A stretch of DNA of 64,000 nucleotides from Escherichia phage vB_EcoS_MM-2: the sequence record PV577658; one strand, 5' to 3'. Positions 4,074-32,163 of the stretch are shown here, in pieces. A program made the translations under genes and the position numbers. Position 1 is the first letter of the stretch, and every line of letters begins with the position of its first letter. Below the pieces are notes generated by a model, which did no database searches, was not told the origin of the DNA, and was given only the letters and a program-made list of their open reading frames with translations.

Positions 4074-6860
4074 GTGTTCTCAATCCTACAAGGTCATGCA
4101 GGATTTCATCGCGATTTAGCCACAGGCATTTGGCGAGAAGTTAAAGCAGAAGACTATCTTTTTGCTAAAAGATTTTCCTCAAAGCATCCTGAAGGTAAAC
4201 CAGCTTCAATGCCCTTCAAGTTTGATGTAATTGATGAAGTTGATCCTCAAACCCTAGTAGAAATGCTCCCTCTTATGAGACGTTTAACGTCTGACCCTCA
4301 TATCGTTGCGGTACGAGGTCGATGTCTTGCACCCAAAAATAATGTGCGGCGTAAGAAGGGCAACTTTAATGTATCTAACCCAAGTCATATAATTGCAATG
4401 GACGTGGATGGTATTGTAGATACAGGTGGTTGTAACAAGTTTGATCTTGTTGGCATGGCTCGACATATTATTAGAATGTTAAATAGTATTAGTGAGGATA
4501 TGTTTCCTCTTGATGCAGGGTTTATTGCTCATGCATCGTCTTCGGCTGGGCTAAAACCAGGTATCCGAATGCACTTAATACTAGAATCTAATGTTAAAGT
4601 AACTCAGGGTCAAATCAAATTCTTATTTACATCTATCAATGAAAGTAGTAGACAAAAGTATGGCTTTGATATTGCCGACTTAGCTTATTACTCTTCCGTA
4701 CAGCTCCATTATTTTGCAGATCCGTTATTTACCGATGGTATAGTAGATCCGTTTAAGGCGGAGGGTGCTTCACGTCTGGTATTTGTTAAGGGTTCTAAAG
4801 TAAACTTACCTAATAATCTGGTTGACTATGAAACAACTAGAGGTGAGTTTAAGGAGGAGTTTTACTCTTTACTCGATCAAATTAAAGGTAAAAAAGCTGC
4901 CTCCGATAAAGTAGAGGAAACTATCAGCGAACTAGAAGAAGCTGAGGATGGAGTGTATCTACGTATCATACCTAAACTCTATCACAGAGCTTTAGAGGAT
5001 GGTGTTGATTTTGCATGGCTAGAAAAAGAAATCCGTCCAGCCTTATCAGAATATATTGCAACCAAAGATAATAGTCGTAATATTCAAGATTACTTTAATA
5101 ACGGTCGTAAACAGGCTCTGAAAGCATTTGTTAATAATTCTAAACGCGATATACCTGATGTTTTAAAAGGTATTCCACTTAAAAAGCTAGAAACTAACTC
5201 TCTAGAAACTGATAACTTCTTGAAATTAAATACTGTACCACCAGAAGGTTATATGACTTTTGTAAAAGCAAGTCTAGGTACAGGTAAAACTACGGCGGTT
5301 GTGCGTTGGTTAGATTCAGGAGTTATTAAAGGTAATTTCTTAGCAATTACCAATACTCGAGCACTGGTATCTTCAAATGCTAAGAAATTTAGTGCAGGAC
5401 AATATGATAAGTCTGTAGATATGCTTAATTTTAAGCGTGGTGCTATTGACCGTATGTCCACAACTATTCACTCTTTGCATAAGTTCAAGAGTTTTATTGG
5501 TCAAATCGATGCAATCTTTATAGATGAATGTGATGCTGTAATGAATGACCTATTATTCGCCCCGGTTGTTAAACAACGTCGTGAATGTATTCAGGTTCTT
5601 CGGGATATTCTTGCAACTGCAAAAATCATTATATTATCTGATGGGGATATTAGTGCAGAAACAATTGAAGCATATGGTTCTTTAATTGAGTTTGATAAAC
5701 CGGTTGCATTTTATAATCATCACCGAAAAATGCTATCAAAAGCTCATGCCTACGAGTTCCCTGATGAATCCAGTATTTGGGTTGCACTTCAGACTTCTCT
5801 AGAGATGGGTGAGAAATCTATCCTAGTATCTGACTGTGGGCCGGATGAACTGAATGAGAAGGGCATGGCGTTGCGTCGTAATACGGGTGCGTTAGTTAAG
5901 GAAATCCACTCAAACTCTACGTCTGATGTAGATATTCGACGTATTCTGGATTACACAACTAATGAGTTAATTGACCAACAAATTGATTGCTTATTATGTA
6001 GTCCATCCGTAACGAGTGGTGTTGACTTCAACTATTTTGATAACGTATTCGTTATTACTAGAACCAGTAACCAAGCGCCAAACATGCGTTTTCAAGCAAT
6101 CAGGCGCGACCGTGGTGCTCAGAACATTTATTATTTTATTGATAAATCTACGAGTGGATTCTCCGCAGGCTCTGAACAATATAATATTGATGAAGGTTGG
6201 CTGGAGTTAGCACAGCAATTATACGCACGTCGTAGGGAGCTGGAGTCTAGGAACTATACTAGTACTTTACGTTATTACTTGCTTGATCAGGGTGCAACTA
6301 TTGATATTTTCAGTGAAAGCTGGGGAACTATCGAAGGTGCAGGTAAAGAGTATACAGAAGAGCGAATCAAAGCCATTTTGTATTCAACTCCTGATTATTG
6401 TGCTCCACGCCATGCAGATGCATATGAAGCTAAACTACTTCTTGTTCGCTATTATCATCTTGAGTCTATTAAAGATGTAACAGTTGAGCATGTTGAGCAA
6501 TACATTAAGGATAAACCGAATGATCGAGCGGCATTCTTCCATAAAATGCACGAGATGTTCTGGGAAGATATTAAGAAGTGTTCAAATGTCACTATCAAAC
6601 CATTCATAGAAGCTCTGAAAGGCAAGAAGAAAGATTTCTTCCTTAAAACAGGTCAGAGTGCTAACCCAAAATATGCCAGAATGTATCTTGGTATGATGGG
6701 TATTGGCAAGGATATGAACACGGAGAATATTGTAGACTGGTACAGAACTTATTGTAAAATCGAGTGTATGCCAATTCCTTTCAAATTCATGACAGAGGAA
6801 GAGAAGGCTATGGCAGAAGAAGTACTGTCCGAACTTGGAGCAACTAATGAAGACGCATAA
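3996..6860 (+). CDS. large P-loop NTPase / helicase, putative replication initiation or origin-binding protein (probable start GTG ~4074)
   Basis: Walker A LGTGKTT and Walker B FIDECD; AGGAG RBS 7 nt before an in-frame GTG at ~4074; about 930-954 aa. Confidence 0.6.
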   Translation: MTVTVVLFFLNSPKENLFHFQHRSIVVFSILQGHAGFHRDLATGIWREVKAEDYLFAKRFSSKHPEGKPASMPFKFDVIDEVDPQTLVEMLPLMRRLTSDPHIVAVRGRCLAPKNNVRRKKGNFNVSNPSHIIAMDVDGIVDTGGCNKFDLVGMARHIIRMLNSISEDMFPLDAGFIAHASSSAGLKPGIRMHLILESNVKVTQGQIKFLFTSINESSRQKYGFDIADLAYYSSVQLHYFADPLFTDGIVDPFKAEGASRLVFVKGSKVNLPNNLVDYETTRGEFKEEFYSLLDQIKGKKAASDKVEETISELEEAEDGVYLRIIPKLYHRALEDGVDFAWLEKEIRPALSEYIATKDNSRNIQDYFNNGRKQALKAFVNNSKRDIPDVLKGIPLKKLETNSLETDNFLKLNTVPPEGYMTFVKASLGTGKTTAVVRWLDSGVIKGNFLAITNTRALVSSNAKKFSAGQYDKSVDMLNFKRGAIDRMSTTIHSLHKFKSFIGQIDAIFIDECDAVMNDLLFAPVVKQRRECIQVLRDILATAKIIILSDGDISAETIEAYGSLIEFDKPVAFYNHHRKMLSKAHAYEFPDESSIWVALQTSLEMGEKSILVSDCGPDELNEKGMALRRNTGALVKEIHSNSTSDVDIRRILDYTTNELIDQQIDCLLCSPSVTSGVDFNYFDNVFVITRTSNQAPNMRFQAIRRDRGAQNIYYFIDKSTSGFSAGSEQYNIDEGWLELAQQLYARRRELESRNYTSTLRYYLLDQGATIDIFSESWGTIEGAGKEYTEERIKAILYSTPDYCAPRHADAYEAKLLLVRYYHLESIKDVTVEHVEQYIKDKPNDRAAFFHKMHEMFWEDIKKCSNVTIKPFIEALKGKKKDFFLKTGQSANPKYARMYLGMMGIGKDMNTENIVDWYRTYCKIECMPIPFKFMTEEEKAMAEEVLSELGATNEDA

Positions 6861-26171: not shown

Positions 26172-26614
26172 TTAAAATTAAATTAACTCATCCAGATTGT
26201 ATGCCTAAGATTGGTTCCGAAGATGCCGCAGGTATGGATCTGCGAGCATTCTTTGGTACTAATCCTGCCGCAGACTTACGCGCTATTGCACCAGGCAAAT
26301 CTCTTATGATTGACACCGGTGTCGCGGTAGAAATTCCGCGAGGTTGGTTCGGTTTGGTAGTTCCGCGTAGTTCTTTAGGTAAACGCCATTTGATGATTGC
26401 AAATACCGCAGGAGTGATTGACTCAGACTATCGTGGAACTATTAAGATGAATCTGTTTAACTACGGTTCTGAAATTCAAACTCTGGAGAATTTTGAAAGA
26501 CTTTGTCAGCTAGTAGTAGTACCACACTACTCAACTCATAATTTTGAAATCGTTGACGAACTAGGGGAGACTGATCGTGGGGAAGACGGATTTGGAAGTT
26601 CAGGAAGCAAATAA
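26168..26614 (+). CDS. dut: dUTPase
   Basis: dUTPase motifs AAGMDLRA, PRSS, IDSDYRG, FGSSG. Confidence 0.85.
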   Translation: MIKIKLTHPDCMPKIGSEDAAGMDLRAFFGTNPAADLRAIAPGKSLMIDTGVAVEIPRGWFGLVVPRSSLGKRHLMIANTAGVIDSDYRGTIKMNLFNYGSEIQTLENFERLCQLVVVPHYSTHNFEIVDELGETDRGEDGFGSSGSK

Positions 26615-26840
26615 TTTTACTGATCCTAATATGATAGGTATTGATACTAATATGTCAACTTATCAGATTAAAACTGCTGAACCAGAAACGTTTGTGCTAA
26701 AAACAGATAAAGAAGGTAATGTTACTTTCTGGGACCCTGAAGGTTTTGTAGAGCTTTGTACTAATACGGATAATGAGCATTTAAAACTACTATTAGCTAT
26801 TTATAATCTTGGTATTATAGAAGGTTGTAGAAGCAAGTAA
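26577..26840 (+). CDS. hypothetical protein
   Basis: Track ORF overlapping the dUTPase gene end. Confidence 0.35.
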   Translation: MGKTDLEVQEANNFTDPNMIGIDTNMSTYQIKTAEPETFVLKTDKEGNVTFWDPEGFVELCTNTDNEHLKLLLAIYNLGIIEGCRSK

Positions 26841-26848
26841 TAGAAAAA

Positions 26849-26880
26849 CCCCGGTGGATTTTGTCCACCGGGGTTTCTTT
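26849..26880. terminator. bidirectional rho-independent terminator between convergent early and late units
   Basis: Perfect 10-bp stem ccccggtgga-ttttg-tccaccgggg flanked by an A-run and tttcttt. Confidence 0.75.
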
Positions 26881-26896
26881 GTACTATGTATATGTA

Positions 26897-29665
26897 CTAT
26901 GAGTTATCTGGCTTAATAAGCTCGCTAACAAGTTTCTTCAGTTCGGTTAATTCTTGCTCAAGTTTGTTAACTTTATCAGCTTGATAACGAAATGCGCAAG
27001 CTAGGTCTGCCATAATGACGTTGTTATCAAGCGCTAATGTGTCATCTGCTTTGTCAACAACAATTTGACGATCTACATATTCTTCACCTTCATCGTTAAC
27101 ACCTACAACATCTGCAAAAATATCACCTCCCGGGATTAATTTTACGTATTCGGGATCTATTTTTAGCAGGTCTTGGGCTATTAAGCCGAATCGTTGGATA
27201 TCGCTACCGTTGTATTTAAACATCGTTGGCAACCACTGCATAACTCGGTCATAGCTTTCTTTTCCATCTGTATAAATTATATCGTGCTTTAAATCTCTGT
27301 CAGAGTTAGCGGCCTTTTGAAAAATGAAATTTCCACTTGATGACCATGTGGTTATATCGTTTGAGGCTGGCTGAAACTGGAAGTTACAGAAAAAATTACC
27401 ATCACCACGAAGTCTTAGCGAGCAAAAAGGCCAAGCATTATTTCCCTGTGGGATAAGTCCCCAAGTTGCGCGAATTGGATAACCACCAGTGGATTGTGTA
27501 CCCCATGAAAGGCCAGGTGCCCATCCACCATCATTGTTAGCAATAGTCTCACCCCAAACAAGAGCATTACCCCAATAGTTAGGAGCATCCCATCCCATTT
27601 GTTGGGTTTTGCCAGTGTATTGAGCAGAATGCGTTCTGCCGTCAGGGTAAAACTTGTGCATATAGGACCGTATCCCTGCTTGATACAACTCTATTCCAAA
27701 AGATTCAACGTGTGTGTCGCCTCTTCTGATTAAACCAGCGATAGCGTAATCGTCATACCAGTTGTAACGACTTACACCAGTCCATGTGTTTATTGGTGGA
27801 TTCATGATTGAAAATAGTTGTGACGCATTGCGTTCATTCCCATCTGCATAAATACCAGCCCCAGGAGCTAAGGAAATACTTTTCGCTCCTGAAAAAGTAC
27901 CATTTTCATTAAACTGATAATACTGTGATGCCCCATTATGAAATACGCCTATTGTATGCTTTCCTACGCCTACTTGAGTCTCAAAATAAGACTGAGAAGA
28001 ACCAATATCTTCGCCTTGTGTATTCTTTAATTTTGAATGATATATACCTGCATTTGCAGTAGTTGCATTTTCCGTTTCGTTTTCAACATTAAGACTTAGG
28101 AACTTTGGTGCATGTTTCTCACCAAGCCCTATATTATTTCTGATACCATTCGCATCCTTAGCACCTGTACCACCAAATTGAATACCTAGTGGTAGCCATT
28201 GATTGGTTGTAGCATCATAAACGCCCCAATGATCCCCACCATCTGGAATGGTTAGATACTTGTTTTTATTTGGAGAATATAAAATTGTTTCACCAGAATT
28301 CTGAAACAGCCTATCAACTCCTAAATTATATCTAGCACCTTCAGGAGTATCTGCTCCTGTACCACCAGCCGCAGTTGATAATGGAAGAGTTTCCCATGAT
28401 ATTCCATCACCTTTTGTATCTCTCTGAAGTACAATAAGACCATCATCTCTAATAACAAATCTATATAATCTATTATGTGAATATAGAAAAGTATGAACCC
28501 CATCTTGTACAAGTGAGTCTATAAGGAGTGTCTGACGAGAAGCATTGATATTTGACAGATCTGAGAGATTATTTTCTTTTAGTAACGATTTACTAATGAT
28601 ACCTTCAGCTTTTCCAGCAGCTACTTCCGCACGCCCAGCGTCTGTAGATGCACTTTGTGCGCTACCAGCAGCATTGCTAGCTTGTTGTCCTGCTTCGGTA
28701 GCGCTATTACTTGCTTGTGCAGCCGAGGCTGCAGCAGCATCTTTTAGCACTGTAGTTTCCGTTACCGCACTATCCTTAATACCTTGTGTGTCTGTTTTTA
28801 ATTGCTCAACATCAGATTTTAAAGCCGTTGTTTCACCTATAGTGCTGTCTTTAATTAGTTGAGTATCTGTTTTTAATTGCTCAACATCTGATTTTAAGCC
28901 TTGAATAGTAGTTACTGATTGGTTAGCTGAGGCTGCGGAATGGGCTGCATTAGTCTCACTAGTTTTTGCATTGGTTTCACTAGTTTTTGCATTGGCTTCA
29001 CTAGCTTTTGCATTAGTTTCCGAGGTTTTTGCAGCGGATGCTGATGCGGCGGCTTGTGCAGAGAATATTTCTGCCCCATCTCTATAGCCTTTAGAATCCG
29101 AAGCAGAAGCAGCAGCATTAGTTTCACTAGCCTTTGCCTTATCTTCACTAGTCTTTGCTGCAATAGCAGAAGCAGCAGCATTAGTTTCACTAGCCTTTGC
29201 CTTATCTTCGCTAGCCTTTGCATTAGTCTCACTAGTTTTTGCGTTAGTCTCACTAGTTTTTGCATTAGTTTCACTAGCCTTTGCCTTATCTTCGCTAGTT
29301 TTAGCATTAGTCTCAGATATTTTAGCTGCAGCTGCTGATTCCTCCGATTTAGTAGCTGATGCAGCAGATTGAGTAGCAGATGTAGCGGACTGAGTGGCAG
29401 AGGCTTCAGAAGCTCCAGCAGAAATAGCAGCTTCCTGTTCAGAGTTCTTAGCATTAAGCTCCGAAGTTTTAGCCGCTATCTCAGAATCTTTTGCAGCTGC
29501 AGCAGACTTAGCTGCAGCCTCAATAGAAGATACTAACTCACTTGCAGTAATAGAGCTAATAGAATTACCTAGAGTTACTGTATATCTAGGAAACTTACTA
29601 GCAGTAGCTTTAGTATCATCAATATTTAATATTTGTTGTACAATAATTTTAGTAGTTACTGCCAT
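26897..29665 (-). CDS. ltf: L-shaped tail fibre protein with C-terminal intramolecular chaperone (S74-like) domain
   Basis: C-terminal DLKHDIIYTDGKESYDRVMQWLP...LIAQDLLKIDPEYVKLIP chaperone-like domain; internal TSETNAK heptad repeats. Confidence 0.75.
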   Translation of the reverse strand: MAVTTKIIVQQILNIDDTKATASKFPRYTVTLGNSISSITASELVSSIEAAAKSAAAAKDSEIAAKTSELNAKNSEQEAAISAGASEASATQSATSATQSAASATKSEESAAAAKISETNAKTSEDKAKASETNAKTSETNAKTSETNAKASEDKAKASETNAAASAIAAKTSEDKAKASETNAAASASDSKGYRDGAEIFSAQAAASASAAKTSETNAKASEANAKTSETNAKTSETNAAHSAASANQSVTTIQGLKSDVEQLKTDTQLIKDSTIGETTALKSDVEQLKTDTQGIKDSAVTETTVLKDAAAASAAQASNSATEAGQQASNAAGSAQSASTDAGRAEVAAGKAEGIISKSLLKENNLSDLSNINASRQTLLIDSLVQDGVHTFLYSHNRLYRFVIRDDGLIVLQRDTKGDGISWETLPLSTAAGGTGADTPEGARYNLGVDRLFQNSGETILYSPNKNKYLTIPDGGDHWGVYDATTNQWLPLGIQFGGTGAKDANGIRNNIGLGEKHAPKFLSLNVENETENATTANAGIYHSKLKNTQGEDIGSSQSYFETQVGVGKHTIGVFHNGASQYYQFNENGTFSGAKSISLAPGAGIYADGNERNASQLFSIMNPPINTWTGVSRYNWYDDYAIAGLIRRGDTHVESFGIELYQAGIRSYMHKFYPDGRTHSAQYTGKTQQMGWDAPNYWGNALVWGETIANNDGGWAPGLSWGTQSTGGYPIRATWGLIPQGNNAWPFCSLRLRGDGNFFCNFQFQPASNDITTWSSSGNFIFQKAANSDRDLKHDIIYTDGKESYDRVMQWLPTMFKYNGSDIQRFGLIAQDLLKIDPEYVKLIPGGDIFADVVGVNDEGEEYVDRQIVVDKADDTLALDNNVIMADLACAFRYQADKVNKLEQELTELKKLVSELIKPDNS
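28945..29320. repeat. tandem 21-bp repeats inside the tail-fibre gene
   Basis: About 14 copies of gcattagt(t/c)tcactag(t/c)(t/c)ttt in two blocks, encoding T-S-E-T-N-A-K heptads. Confidence 0.8.
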
Positions 29666-30087
29666 TATTTAGTTACCCCATCACTGATAAATACTTTACC
29701 CTCCATTATACGAAAGGAGCTAATTGCAGATCCTATAACATCTCTAGTCATAATTATATCATAGTATCCTGCGAATCGCTGACGAGGGTTATATTTATCT
29801 CTATCTTTAGATGCTCTAGCCCCTATATTTTCCACAGATTCTACTGGCAAACTTATAGCTACAGCCCCTTGAGCAGCATCAATAATATTAGTAGTAAAGG
29901 ATGCTAATATCTCCGCATTCTCATCTAGGCTATTTTTTATAGTACCCCTTAGAGAATACCCGGTTAAGTTAACGGGGGTATTTGTAGGTGGATAAGTACT
30001 ATCATCAACATCTAAGAACCGCATCATTAAACCATATGGTACTTTCTCATCTATTACTAAATCTATAACTCTATTTTCAGTACTCAT
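29665..30087 (-). CDS. small tail/collar protein (T5 p132-like by size and position)
   Basis: 140 aa, immediately upstream of the fibre gene; synteny only. Confidence 0.45.
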
Positions 30088-30090
30088 TAT

Positions 30091-32163
30091 TTACCTTATA
30101 TGGATGTACCCGTTTTGCAGGTCTATCTTCATTCTGTAATAGGCTTCCGGATTATCAGATAATGCAGCGTTTCTATCATAAATAACGTTAACACCGATCT
30201 GAGATAAGAAGGCATTATTTGCTACAATCTTACTGGCGGTTACCGTACCATTAACTATCATATCGCCATGCAGTACCATTGCTGGGTTAACCCAACCGGA
30301 ACCATTCCATTGACGAGTAAATGCAGATTGCGGAGCATTACTATTAAACTCTGTCAATACATCATATCTAACTGGAGGACTACCAAAGTTATTCTGGAAG
30401 AAGGCATTAGCCTGCCCATCATCCCAACCACCAAGACCAGGAATACCTAAGGAATACATTCCAGGACCACGTTGTCCATCATGTCCTATAGTACCTTCAG
30501 TACCACTCCACTGAACTACATCAGACCAGCTAGTACCTGCAAGTAGCTTATTAGTAACTGGGTCAAGTGTACCCGTAGTCGCATAGATATTTTGTGTCAT
30601 ATCTGTACGATTAGGTGGAGTTTTTGACCAACCAGGAGGCGGATAATCTTGTTCTAGTGGCTTTGCTGGAAGTGCAGTTGATATCTTATAAACAAATACT
30701 GTTTGCTTGCCCTGTATACCTGTTTGGATATCTACATCGCCATTTGGTGTTCCAATTACTACTCCACTAGAAATACGTAGTACATCACCATCATAACGAA
30801 TCCACTGTGTGGCATTACCAATGTCTAACTTAGCTTTGGCAGAGGTATTATCCATGCCCATCCAAATACCGGAGTTATTATCCCCCCAAGATTTACCTTG
30901 AGTGTAAATTGCTGGATTATCCTTACCGGATAAGTTAGTCATGATAAAATTCGCAGCATTAATATCTCTAGTAATTACTTTACCATCAACGTTAACAACA
31001 CGGTTTATAGGATCAAAAGAAATAGGTGCTTTTCCCTCTTCATCTAGCAGACCAATGTTAATAGCACCAGTAGCTGCATCGATTAAGAATGTCTGTCTCC
31101 AGATTTCTCCATCTTTCATGCTGCCCTTAATAAAGGCATAGTTAACATCAATACCAGTCTCATTGACAAAGCTGTTATCTAGAGGAGTATCTTCATTCAA
31201 TATAAATGTTACAGGAGCTGATTCTGTTATATCTTGTTTATTTGGTCCCCAGGCAATTGATGATACCTTAAAGGTATGTTCAACTTTCCATGGGAATGAT
31301 ATAATTGTTGCAGCTCTGGCAGCACCAACGTTTATCTTTTGAGCTTTAGCCCAGCCAGTCTTAGCGTATTCTTCAGAATTTATATATGTAACCAAGAACT
31401 CACGAACATTAGCACCACCACCGCGTTCCCAATCCCACTCAATTCTAACATCATATCGTTCTTTACCATCAGCAATTCGTGCAGCTTTAAAAACAATATT
31501 GATAGGTGCAGTAGGAGGAACAAAATTATAAGCTACTGTTAAAATATTAGGGAATTCATAGTACCCAGAAGAATCAACTGTAACACCATCAGGCATAGTT
31601 ACTTGACCAGATATTCTGATCTTATAATCTCCGATAGGAACTCCACCAAATTTAATAGTAGAACCTAAAGCCCCAATGTAATACTTAGTCCAAGGACTGT
31701 CTTCAGTAGCTGTACTTTTTAACTCAATAGTACAGTAGCTTGCTTCACCAGTTGTTTCTACGACAACTATCGGTGCACCTACCCCAACATCCACAGGTTC
31801 TGATTCAGATCTTGCTGCAACAATTATTGGCTTCTCTTTTGTCCTAAAGTTAGTCTCATTAGAGAGATTGATACCAATCTTAGCCTCTAGCAGTTCAGAA
31901 TCAATAATAGAGTCGTAGAAAGCCCCTTGAATCTCGTAAGAGGTTGAAGGGGTCAGGTTATTAATCATTATGAAGAAAGTATCTATACCAGTATAATCAC
32001 GTCTATCTATACTTTCTCCTGTCTTTAACCAAAAAGATCTACCAATAACGTCATAGTCAGTATATATAGAGTGCTGGACATATGCCATTGTATATCCAGT
32101 CATTATACTATTTAAAACCATTTTGGCTGGTGCATTATTCGAAATCATTAAATGGATGCCCAC
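30091..32163 (-). CDS. tail tip / baseplate protein (T5 pb4-like)
   Basis: 690 aa, beta-rich; position between hub protein and p132-like gene. Confidence 0.5.
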   Translation of the reverse strand: MGIHLMISNNAPAKMVLNSIMTGYTMAYVQHSIYTDYDVIGRSFWLKTGESIDRRDYTGIDTFFIMINNLTPSTSYEIQGAFYDSIIDSELLEAKIGINLSNETNFRTKEKPIIVAARSESEPVDVGVGAPIVVVETTGEASYCTIELKSTATEDSPWTKYYIGALGSTIKFGGVPIGDYKIRISGQVTMPDGVTVDSSGYYEFPNILTVAYNFVPPTAPINIVFKAARIADGKERYDVRIEWDWERGGGANVREFLVTYINSEEYAKTGWAKAQKINVGAARAATIISFPWKVEHTFKVSSIAWGPNKQDITESAPVTFILNEDTPLDNSFVNETGIDVNYAFIKGSMKDGEIWRQTFLIDAATGAINIGLLDEEGKAPISFDPINRVVNVDGKVITRDINAANFIMTNLSGKDNPAIYTQGKSWGDNNSGIWMGMDNTSAKAKLDIGNATQWIRYDGDVLRISSGVVIGTPNGDVDIQTGIQGKQTVFVYKISTALPAKPLEQDYPPPGWSKTPPNRTDMTQNIYATTGTLDPVTNKLLAGTSWSDVVQWSGTEGTIGHDGQRGPGMYSLGIPGLGGWDDGQANAFFQNNFGSPPVRYDVLTEFNSNAPQSAFTRQWNGSGWVNPAMVLHGDMIVNGTVTASKIVANNAFLSQIGVNVIYDRNAALSDNPEAYYRMKIDLQNGYIHIR

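Follow-up and report, generated by a model that had tools for sequence, protein, structure and literature searches.

A T5-like lateral tail-fibre gene of Escherichia phage vB_EcoS_MM-2 with a heptad-repeat shaft and a C-terminal S74 domain

The fibre gene and its neighbourhood

The window analysed here comprises 64,000 nucleotides of Escherichia phage vB_EcoS_MM-2 (PV577658). At 26897..29665 on the minus strand it contains, as an exact open reading frame, a gene for a lateral (L-shaped) tail fibre, with a precursor of 922 aa (98.1 kDa). The gene is 100% identical to the CDS "tail fiber protein" of the Tequintavirus vB_EcoS_MM-1 (PV577657.1), for which a literature search found no paper; in the fibre comparisons below, "MM-1" denotes the sequence identical to this product. 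Immediately upstream lies the LtfC/p132 collar gene (29665..30087, minus strand; 140 aa; Pfam PF23926 LtfC, E 2.7e-14), which codes for the attachment partner of the fibre and whose stop codon overlaps the fibre start codon. The gene order pb3-pb4-LtfC-Ltf, traced with the Pfam LtfC and PB4 domains, is that of the Tequintavirus tail-tip module and is identical in T5. Only one fibre gene is present in MM-1, flanked by LtfC and dUTPase. Directly past the fibre stop codon, a terminator scan of both strands detected a bidirectional terminator-like hairpin (26844..26878, no strand assigned), and the T5 annotation has a bidirectional terminator at the equivalent site.

Residues 1-209 of the fibre align to LtfA of phage DT57C (8hqz_d) with E 1.7e-34. 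This match and the adjoining LtfC collar gene and pb4 support the assignment as a tail-fibre gene, which had been made in a sequence-only reading of this DNA. As judged by sequence, the product is a homologue of T5 pb1 and DT57C LtfA, and the gene is that of an ordinary, normally annotated side tail fibre of a T5-like coliphage, with parts matching these two proteins.

Attachment segment and heptad shaft

The N-terminal attachment segment (aa 1-39; 29549..29665, minus strand) is near-identical to residues 1-39 of DT57C LtfA. Cryo-electron microscopy of the latter showed a long helix from T40 in a trimeric bundle, with the preceding residues forming a lasso in the LtfC ring (PMC10713586). By analogy, insertion of aa 1-39 as a similar "lasso" in the LtfC collar ring would be expected; these residues are of low confidence in the AlphaFold2 (AF2) monomer. 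The AF2 models are monomers of moderate confidence (pLDDT 70 and 78.6). As in a T5-like anchor, there is a conserved N-terminus of about 40 aa, followed by a heptad register from T40 and a predicted AF2 helix from residue 41.

The proximal shaft (aa 40-256; 28898..29548, minus strand) consists of 31 in-register SxxxAxx heptads with 21-bp repeats, as seen from layout, composition, lag-21 identity and AF2. The register starts at T40 and is unbroken through all 31 heptads; serine occupies position 1 in 28 of them and alanine position 5 in 24. Base identity at a lag of 21 was 0.56, compared with 0.18-0.30 across lags 18-24, and the 21-bp repeats are real, far beyond chance. Tandem Repeats Finder (TRF) delimited arrays at 28946-29033 (4.2 copies, 85% matches) and 29115-29309 (9.3 copies), in total about 13.5 copies, with nested periods of 42, 63 and 84 bp and scores up to 226; repeat finding gave a family of 10 copies with a spacing of 21 bp. 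The second TRF array, of period 21, falls in core array 1 (aa 117-186; 29108..29317, minus strand), which has ten SETNAKT/SEDKAKA/SETNAAA units and a longest exact repeat of 45 bp; the first, together with the heptad layout, defines core array 2 with five SETNAKT-like units (aa 208-242; 28940..29044, minus strand). The 21-bp DNA repeats are the closest 15 of the 31 heptads, namely those of the two core arrays, and they are the coding image of the shaft heptads. The previous estimate of about 14 copies encoding TSETNAK-like heptads agreed with TRF, but the array at the protein level is larger than was stated. Out-of-frame open reading frames in the array (e.g., 28912..29454) were considered as genes and rejected, since they merely mirror the repeats in another frame. 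The repeats have in this way given rise to an annotation artefact, an out-of-frame ORF listed as a gene.

AF2 placed helices at residues 41-184 and 192-399 of the monomer. The break between them (185-191, pLDDT below 50) coincides with a discontinuity or hinge, SASDSKGYRDGAEI (aa 187-200; 29066..29107, minus strand). The repeats, rich in Ser, Ala and Thr, could also be read as a disordered or extended hydrophilic spacer, or as a beta-structured repeat, without a coiled coil; their low complexity, the scarcity of large hydrophobic residues and an AF2 confidence of just 62-84 for aa 40-180 would fit. This reading appears highly improbable: in the solved tail tip of DT57C, the homologous part forms a bundle of three helices from T40 on, AF2 predicts a continuous helix, and small residues recurring at positions 1 and 5 of a strict 7-residue register suit a tight trimeric core. 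The SxxxAxx heptads would rather form a three-stranded coiled-coil shaft.

Adjacent to the heptads, a helical unit of 25 aa, LKSDVEQLKTDTQxIKDSxxxETTx, is duplicated in tandem (aa 257-306; 28748..28897, minus strand); its 75-nt copies, LKSDVEQLKTDTQLIKDSTIGETTA (aa 257-281) and LKSDVEQLKTDTQGIKDSAVTETTV (aa 282-306), have 75% nucleotide identity. These copies are too diverged for TRF and the repeat listing, which did not reach them; the duplicated segment noticed previously is nevertheless a genuine one. It is predicted as helix by AF2 (pLDDT 85-91) and adds another helical unit to the shaft formed by the heptads. The shaft continues with an Ala/Ser/Gln-rich segment, also an AF2 helix (aa 307-360; 28586..28747, minus strand), which is common to the Seuratvirus-type fibre.

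Repeat number among related fibres

Copy numbers were taken from 17 translated Tequintavirus fibre genes and from differences in BLAST match spans over about 34 phages. A homologue search with aa 1-370 was unusable for a census, as it was swamped by Ala/Ser-rich low-complexity proteins and did not return the T5-like fibres. Thirty-one heptads were present in 11 of the 17 genes (MM-1, T5_ev212, Elw, EC148, ABTNLsp4, IrisVonRoten gp22, L6jm, OSYSP, MET_P1, FGS017 and Lindwurm), including ABTNLsp4, IrisVonRoten gp22 and L6jm, despite the unrelated distal parts of these three. The range was 29-32, with 32 in VEc33, 30 in T5_ev219, EC100 and APCEc03, and 29 in PK7. The 25-aa unit occurred in one copy in P0007 and FGS017, in two in the MM-1 group, with 25- and 36-aa forms in MET_P1 and VEc33, and in three in OSYSP, T5_ev219, EC100 and APCEc03. 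Span differences were mostly 0, otherwise -42, -21 or +21; the EC100 group differed by about +44, and five phages differed by +9. The +9 case that was checked, FGS017, is a 3-aa insertion, not a multiple of 7, and falls at the predicted helix break, exactly within aa 187-200. All changes in copy number were in frame, and the resolved indels were whole heptads, helical units of 11, 25 or 36 aa, or lay at the predicted helix break.

Units have been shuffled while their number was kept, because in relatives of 80% identity the positional orthologue was the best match for only 3-6 of the 15 core units. The core units also differ at synonymous sites, with a mean paralogue identity of 67%, which limits slippage.

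It had been proposed that the repeats are substrates for slippage and recombination which could generate variants of fibre length or host range. In its strongest form, this would make them a contingency-like hypervariable tract, where slippage or unequal recombination changes fibre length and thereby host range. Whole-unit differences do exist between relatives (29-32 heptads, 1-3 copies of the 25-aa unit), exact repeats reach 45 bp, and one Logan contig, ERR11439706 (P0001, 873 aa), contained the MM-1 gene with 5 substitutions and a 147-bp (7-heptad) deletion between 32-bp exact repeats. This deletion could be a collapse in short-read assembly, since a 32-bp repeat flanks it; being ambiguous, it was set aside as direct evidence on copy number and is firm neither way. 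A hypermutable locus is unlikely in view of the eight closest complete genes (95-100% identical), which all have one length, of the near-constant count across the genus, kept at 31 even with unrelated tips, and of the synonymous divergence of the units. The observed variation does not exceed 2 heptads, or about 2 nm of shaft, and a heptad of about 1 nm lies far from the receptor-binding tip. The part of the proposal which concerned length variants stands for whole-unit differences between relatives, and the part which concerned host range was not supported.

The repeats tune and constrain the length of the shaft and serve as crossover sites. In the heptad region of DT57C LtfA, deletion of one residue (A198) abolished adsorption (PMC4728585). 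It appears that selection maintains the coiled-coil register and a near-constant shaft length, although conservation of length could partly be due to shared ancestry. The heptads might even act as a length ruler, which would hold 31 ± 2 of them in most Tequintavirus fibres with any tip, fix how far this tip lies from the tail tip and admit only indels of 7, 11, 25 or 36 aa outside one hinge; this stricter version is regarded as doubtful. Shaft length is not universal, because T5 has only about 24 heptads.

Distal modules and mosaicism

Further towards the C-terminus, a pair of beta modules homologous to each other and about 62-70 aa long was recognized (aa 385-517; 28115..28513, minus strand), each with a GGTGA...(A/I)R(Y/N)N(L/I)G end and a short helix. 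In AF2 (model numbering), their strands are at 26-57 and 94-125 and the helices at 82-88 and 146-152. The following beta-rich distal domain (aa 518-787; 27305..28114, minus strand; AF2 pLDDT about 80-93) is presumed to bind the receptor and terminates the predicted mature fibre (aa 1-787, 82.7 kDa). Neither sequence and profile searches of the PDB nor fold searches gave a solved homologue of it; the PDB profile search with alignment A1, which was dominated by unrelated N-termini of Drexlerviridae type, returned no match to the distal domain.

A receptor and a binding function are suggested for this domain by its position and family. T5-like phages bind O-antigen through their lateral fibres, which they do not need on K-12 (PMC8594841, PMC11990801). 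By analogy, the primary receptor bound by the distal domain would most likely be a surface glycan (O-antigen), and a dispensable one. MM-1 was isolated on the rough K-12 strain W3110, which is consistent with dispensability of the fibre. O157:H7 and Salmonella were the isolation hosts of several phages that have this tip.

Different parts of the gene have different closest relatives. Over aa 1-210, MM-1 matches T5_ev212 with 100% identity, and over aa 361-660 it matches Elw, likewise with 100%; the closest relative changes between aa 210 and 360. ABTNLsp4, IrisVonRoten and L6jm have in common with the MM-1 fibre only aa 1 to about 310-373. Beyond the genus, the distal module has 87-92% nucleotide identity to Seuratvirus and Drexlerviridae fibres, with about 90% to Seuratvirus SD04 over aa 282-922 and 87-92% to Drexlerviridae over aa 497-891; homology starts at about aa 282 for SD04, at about aa 314 for phiLLS and at aa 497 for Drexlerviridae, the last being the second GGTGA motif. 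Relatives of the distal module with 64-80% protein identity are found in chromosomal contigs of E. coli, probably as prophage. It is this module (about aa 282-922), exchanged as a block, that should determine host range.

That these boundaries (about aa 282, about 314, and 497) fall within the repeat region or at the GGTGA motif suggests another role for the shaft, which could be mainly a recombination linker, i.e., shared low-complexity sequence that lets distal modules exchange, with copy number incidental. The switch of closest relative within aa 210-360, the three phages with a common proximal part, and the fact that fibres of Seuratvirus type and of Drexlerviridae also contain the 25-aa unit and the Ala/Ser segment would all agree with it. 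We regard this as a possible but tentative explanation, since it leaves the strict register, the near-constant count and the effect of the one-residue deletion in DT57C unexplained; it is compatible with the interpretation of the fibre preferred below and does not exclude it.

C-terminal domain

The last 135 residues form an intramolecular chaperone domain of the Peptidase_S74 family (aa 788-922; 26900..27304, minus strand; 15.4 kDa; Pfam PF13884). The Pfam match covers aa 788-842 with 34 bits against a cut-off of 22 (E 3.7e-8), and the domain contains the T5-type motif Ser-x4-Lys with Ser788 at 27302-27304 and Lys793 at 27287-27289; the presence of a chaperone-like C-terminus, proposed before, was thus verified. 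AN|SDRDLKHD aligns with NT|SDARLKND of T5, so that S788 and K793 correspond to S1264 and K1269, which have been demonstrated to be catalytic and scissile in T5 (Ser1264/Lys1269; PMC4690869). Across 56 homologues, the Ser, Asp and Lys do not vary (S429, D430 and K434 of alignment A1). In the AF2 monomer, strands at aa 848-872 form a long hairpin and a C-terminal helix extends over aa 881-917; this is consistent with T5 and with the beta-hairpin "tentacle" and trimeric coiled-coil helix expected of such a chaperone. Fold searches with this monomer did not retrieve 4UW8 or 3GW6, and the upstream Arg/Asp of the T5 mechanism were not located in this fibre. By hhalign, alignment A1 matched the pb1 C-terminus of T5 in the 13-residue cleavage motif only (E 0.15); the C-terminus of DT57C LtfA gave a weak full-length alignment to the chaperone domain (E 0.02). 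From the motif, the chaperone domain would cleave itself off before Ser788.

Comparison with known fibres

DT57C LtfA (8HQZ chain d) is similar to MM-1 in the N-terminal anchor, the helix from T40, the SE(T/L)NAK-type heptads, the LtfC collar gene immediately upstream and the C-terminal S74 chaperone. In contrast, its middle and distal parts are unrelated, with tandem 19-aa motifs in place of the 25-aa unit, and the DT57C fibre is branched with a second protein, LtfB, whereas MM-1 has a single fibre gene. T5 pb1 (Ltf, 1396 aa; C-terminal part in 4UW7/4UW8) has the same genome position and role, an N-terminus with about 53% identity over aa 5-234, AKTSETN heptads and a chaperone with the Ser-x4-Lys motif, which is autocleaving in T5; the T5 fibre is an O-antigen-binding accessory. 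However, pb1 exceeds the MM-1 fibre by 474 aa, its heptads (about 24) lead into globular domains, and it lacks 25-aa units. No similarity to aa 518-787 of MM-1 was detectable in its bullet-shaped receptor domain, and the chaperone domains align significantly at the cleavage motif only.

The Drexlerviridae fibre gp40 of the Salmonella phage slyngel (731 aa) has 68% protein identity over aa 258-917 and 87-92% nucleotide identity over aa 497-891; for that of Seuratvirus SD04 (an "Aeromonas" phage; 827 aa), nucleotide identity is about 90% from aa 282 through to the C-terminus. In both groups the S74 chaperone and the cleavage motif are as in MM-1, but the N-terminal anchors differ, being T1-type in Drexlerviridae and lambda Stf-like (PF08400) in Seuratvirus, and the long SETNAKT array is lacking. 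Slyngel has one, hybrid, GGTGA module as against two in MM-1, and Seuratvirus-type fibres have one 25-aa unit. The K1F endosialidase chaperone, the archetype of Peptidase_S74, belongs to the same Pfam family and likewise starts with the Ser/Lys autocleavage motif (PMC4690869); the similarity is at the profile level only, and the part upstream in MM-1 is a fibre tip and no sialidase beta-propeller or beta-helix.

Proposed assembly and significance

The observed gene identity, repeats, register, copy numbers, mosaic boundaries and cleavage motif are best explained as a whole by a T5-like lateral fibre with a heptad shaft, a swapped tip and a self-cleaving chaperone, an interpretation which we consider very probable. 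The fibre would act as a homotrimer, as judged by homology, with aa 1-39 threaded into a dodecameric LtfC collar. From T40, heptads with small Ser and Ala residues at two core positions would form a three-stranded alpha-helical coiled-coil shaft in two segments of about 21 nm and 25 nm, with a short break near aa 185-200; the two GGTGA-motif beta modules would connect this shaft to the beta-rich distal domain. The S74 chaperone would help the distal trimer to fold and then cut itself off before Ser788 by means of the putative Ser788/Lys793 dyad, which would leave the 82.7-kDa mature chain. Recombination or slippage between the repeats does take place, as seen from the shuffling of units and gains or losses of whole units. 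Shaft repeats and GGTGA motifs are also crossover points for the exchange of distal modules between phages, and host range would be altered by this exchange and not by changes in copy number.

The 21-bp repeats are to be understood as coiled-coil heptads constrained in register and length, not as a device for variability; they may also lead to collapsed arrays in short-read contigs, i.e., to assembly artefacts. The repeat region and the GGTGA motifs are practical crossover points for the engineering of chimeric fibres. The distal module, without a solved structural relative, could be a reasonable target for work on receptors and structure; it circulates among Tequintavirus, Seuratvirus, Drexlerviridae and prophage-type genes of E. 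coli.

Fibre gene and genomic context

The open reading frame at 26897..29665 (minus strand; 922 aa), which coincides exactly with the feature noted in the sequence-only reading, was 100% identical in its DNA to the CDS annotated as 'tail fiber protein' in Escherichia phage vB_EcoS_MM-1 (PV577657.1), a Tequintavirus whose isolation host was E. coli K-12 W3110; it is called the MM-1 fibre gene here. Its assignment as a tail fibre was supported by the alignment of aa 1-209 with LtfA of phage DT57C (PDB 8HQZ chain d; E 1.7e-34) and by the surroundings, a standard T5 tail-tip module with the LtfC/p132 collar gene (29665..30087; Pfam LtfC), pb4 (30091..32163; four PB4 domains) and, farther upstream, pb3. 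On the other side of the fibre gene lie convergent dUTPase and flap-endonuclease genes. The convergent genes are divided by a GC-rich 14-15-bp hairpin (26844-26878), which has T-runs on either strand and is situated between the fibre stop codon and a convergent 87-aa ORF (26577..26840). This hairpin resembles a bidirectional intrinsic terminator, such as the T5 annotation has at the equivalent position. No tRNA genes were found by ARAGORN across the 64-kb window (1-64000).

A chaperone-like C-terminal domain had been proposed, and Pfam Peptidase_S74 was indeed matched at aa 788-842 (34 bits; curated cut-off 22), together with the Ser/Lys motif: AN/S788-DRDL-K793 aligned with NT/S1264-DARL-K1269 of T5 (the slash precedes the serine of the motif). 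In T5, Ser1264 is both scissile and catalytic, Lys1269 activates it, and the exchange S1264A blocks cleavage (PMC4690869); the T5 mechanism also involves Arg/Asp farther upstream. The motif's Ser, Asp and Lys did not vary among 56 homologues. The AF2 model resembled T5 in its long hairpin and its terminal helix; the alignment to the DT57C LtfA C-terminus was weak but extended over the whole length. Cleavage at the predicted site would yield a mature chain of 82.7 kDa and a fragment of 15.4 kDa. The gene is an ordinary representative of the T5-like lateral tail fibres, S74 intramolecular chaperone included.

Heptad repeats and the predicted shaft

The 21-bp tandem repeats, previously given as about 14 copies, were recovered by TRF in two arrays (28946-29033, 4.2 copies; 29115-29309, 9.3 copies) with nested periods of 42/63/84 bp and scores up to 226, and by a repeat search as a 10-copy family spaced 21 bp; base identity over the array was 0.56 at lag 21 vs 0.18-0.30 at lags 18-24. 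The periodic region proved larger than first described: heptads follow one another in a single register over aa 40-256, 31 in all, with Ser at position 1 in 28 and Ala at position 5 in 24 of them, and 15 heptads (aa 117-186 and 208-242) are close copies of the SETNAKT/SEDKAKA/SETNAAA type. A 180-aa out-of-frame ORF inside the array (28912-29454, minus strand; RLVKLMQKL-type repeats) was rejected as a gene, since it mirrors the 21-bp repeats in another frame. In Salmonella phage vB_SalS_SA001 the corresponding ORF (L002 3516-4058) has been given a CDS annotation, 'hypothetical protein' ACSA001_1265.

By cryo-EM of DT57C, LtfA residues preceding T40 form a lasso within the dodecameric LtfC ring, and from T40 a long helix leads into a three-helix coiled coil projecting off the tail tip (PMC10713586). 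The MM-1 register begins at the same residue, T40, and T5 pb1 contains the same AKTSETN heptads, about 24 in number. When aa 1-400 were modelled as a monomer with AF2, helices were predicted at 41-184 and 192-399 with a low-confidence break at 185-191. Ser/Ala occupy two positions spaced by 4 and 3 residues; by homology and the monomer prediction, this would most simply be a tightly packed trimeric coiled-coil shaft, of about 21 nm + 25 nm, with each heptad adding about 1 nm.

Repeat number among relatives

Heptads were counted in the translated N-terminal parts of 17 Tequintavirus fibre genes. Whole-heptad differences between relatives do occur (29-32). The number is mostly constant, with 31 in 11 genes (MM-1, T5_ev212, vB_EcoD-Elw, EC148, OSYSP, MET_P1, ABTNLsp4, IrisVonRoten gp22, L6jm, FGS017, Lindwurm); VEc33 has 32, T5_ev219, EC100 and APCEc03 have 30, and PK7 has 29. 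ABTNLsp4, IrisVonRoten gp22 and L6jm have 31 despite unrelated distal parts. In a BLAST census with the first 930 nt of the gene (about 34 distinct phages), differences in match span were mostly 0, otherwise -42, -21 or +21; in addition, five phages gave +9, and in the EC100 group the match fell into two pieces (about +44). In FGS017, the sole +9 phage checked, the predicted helix break is the exact site of a 3-aa insertion. All eight of the most similar complete genes (95-100% identity) were of equal length. In relatives of about 80% identity the best match of a core unit was its positional orthologue for just 3-6 of the 15; therefore, units have been shuffled or converted with their number unchanged. 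DT57C no longer adsorbed when one LtfA residue, A198, was deleted (PMC4728585); this residue falls in SETNAAGSA heptads. Heptad counts, indel sizes, unit shuffling and the A198 deletion, taken together, indicate that the array does recombine, that only register-preserving products appear to survive, and that length is held within narrow limits.

Two further sequences were considered. A contig from Logan (ERR11439706; L012 3001-5622) carries a near-identical fibre gene with 5 substitutions, lacking exactly 147 bp (7 heptads) between 32-bp exact repeats; the deletion could be genuine or could stem from collapse of the array in short-read assembly, and was weighed neither way. SA001 has the same heptads, but a 44-bp duplication near the 5' end (L002 ~4180-4313), covering the KATASKFPRYTVTL-coding segment, breaks the frame, and the fibre gene is split into three annotated CDSs; it is a genuine pseudogene or else the result of an error in sequencing or assembly.

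Internal duplications

The duplicated segment noticed earlier is a tandem 25-aa unit (aa 257-281 and 282-306; copies 75% nucleotide-identical). FGS017 and the Seuratvirus-type fibre P0007 have one copy, the MM-1 group has two, and OSYSP, T5_ev219, EC100 and APCEc03 have three; in MET_P1 and VEc33 there is a longer form of 36 aa (+11 aa). A second duplication, absent from the sequence-only reading, was found at 28115-28513 (aa 385-517): two homologous beta modules (aa 385-455 and 456-517; roughly 62-70 aa), both of which close in the AF2 model with a GGTGA...RxNxG motif and a short helix. Since slyngel and other Drexlerviridae homologues have a single hybrid copy, the motif looks like a recombination junction.

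Mosaic structure and exchange of modules

Codon-aligned identity profiles revealed a mosaic. T5-like phages with other tips have only aa 1 to ~310-373 in common with MM-1. For Seuratvirus phage SD04 the shared part is aa 282-922 (about 90% nucleotide identity), and for Drexlerviridae (slyngel, atuna, G29-2, others) it is aa 497-891 (87-92%), with the boundary at the second GGTGA...RxNxG motif. A protein search yielded 814-aa relatives (64-80% identity), probably from prophages, in long contigs of the E. coli chromosome, and relatives in many contigs of about 60 kb (Seuratvirus-sized) and 50 kb (Drexlerviridae-sized). Codons 1-210 of MM-1 were 100% identical to T5_ev212 and codons 361-660 to Elw, with lower values elsewhere (minimum 73%, codons 271-300 vs T5_ev212); this indicates a recent crossover inside the repeat region, and the MM-1 fibre gene is itself a recent recombinant.

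SD04 (MH230177.1) is recorded as an Aeromonas schubertii phage, and several records named Campylobacter phages also match the coliphage fibre tip (87%); these host labels look doubtful.

From the mosaic boundaries, shaft repeats and GGTGA motifs behave as junctions of module exchange, consistent with the known diversity of lateral-fibre loci and their role in O-antigen recognition (PMC8594841, PMC11990801). The distal domain (aa 518-787) was predicted with good confidence to be beta-rich (AF2); sequence and fold searches gave no solved relative for it.

The descriptive account of repeats, duplication and C-terminal domain was right. The suggestion that the repeats generate host-range variants was not supported, heptad number being near-constant also with unrelated tips. 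The repeats encode a predicted coiled-coil shaft, constrained in register and length, and double as crossover sites; exchange of specificity is expected to take place through a distal module. What is mildly new is that the heptad number stays nearly constant even where the tips are unrelated, that the resolved indels are confined to coiled-coil-compatible sizes or to one hinge, and that the distal module has spread across four phage or prophage backgrounds.
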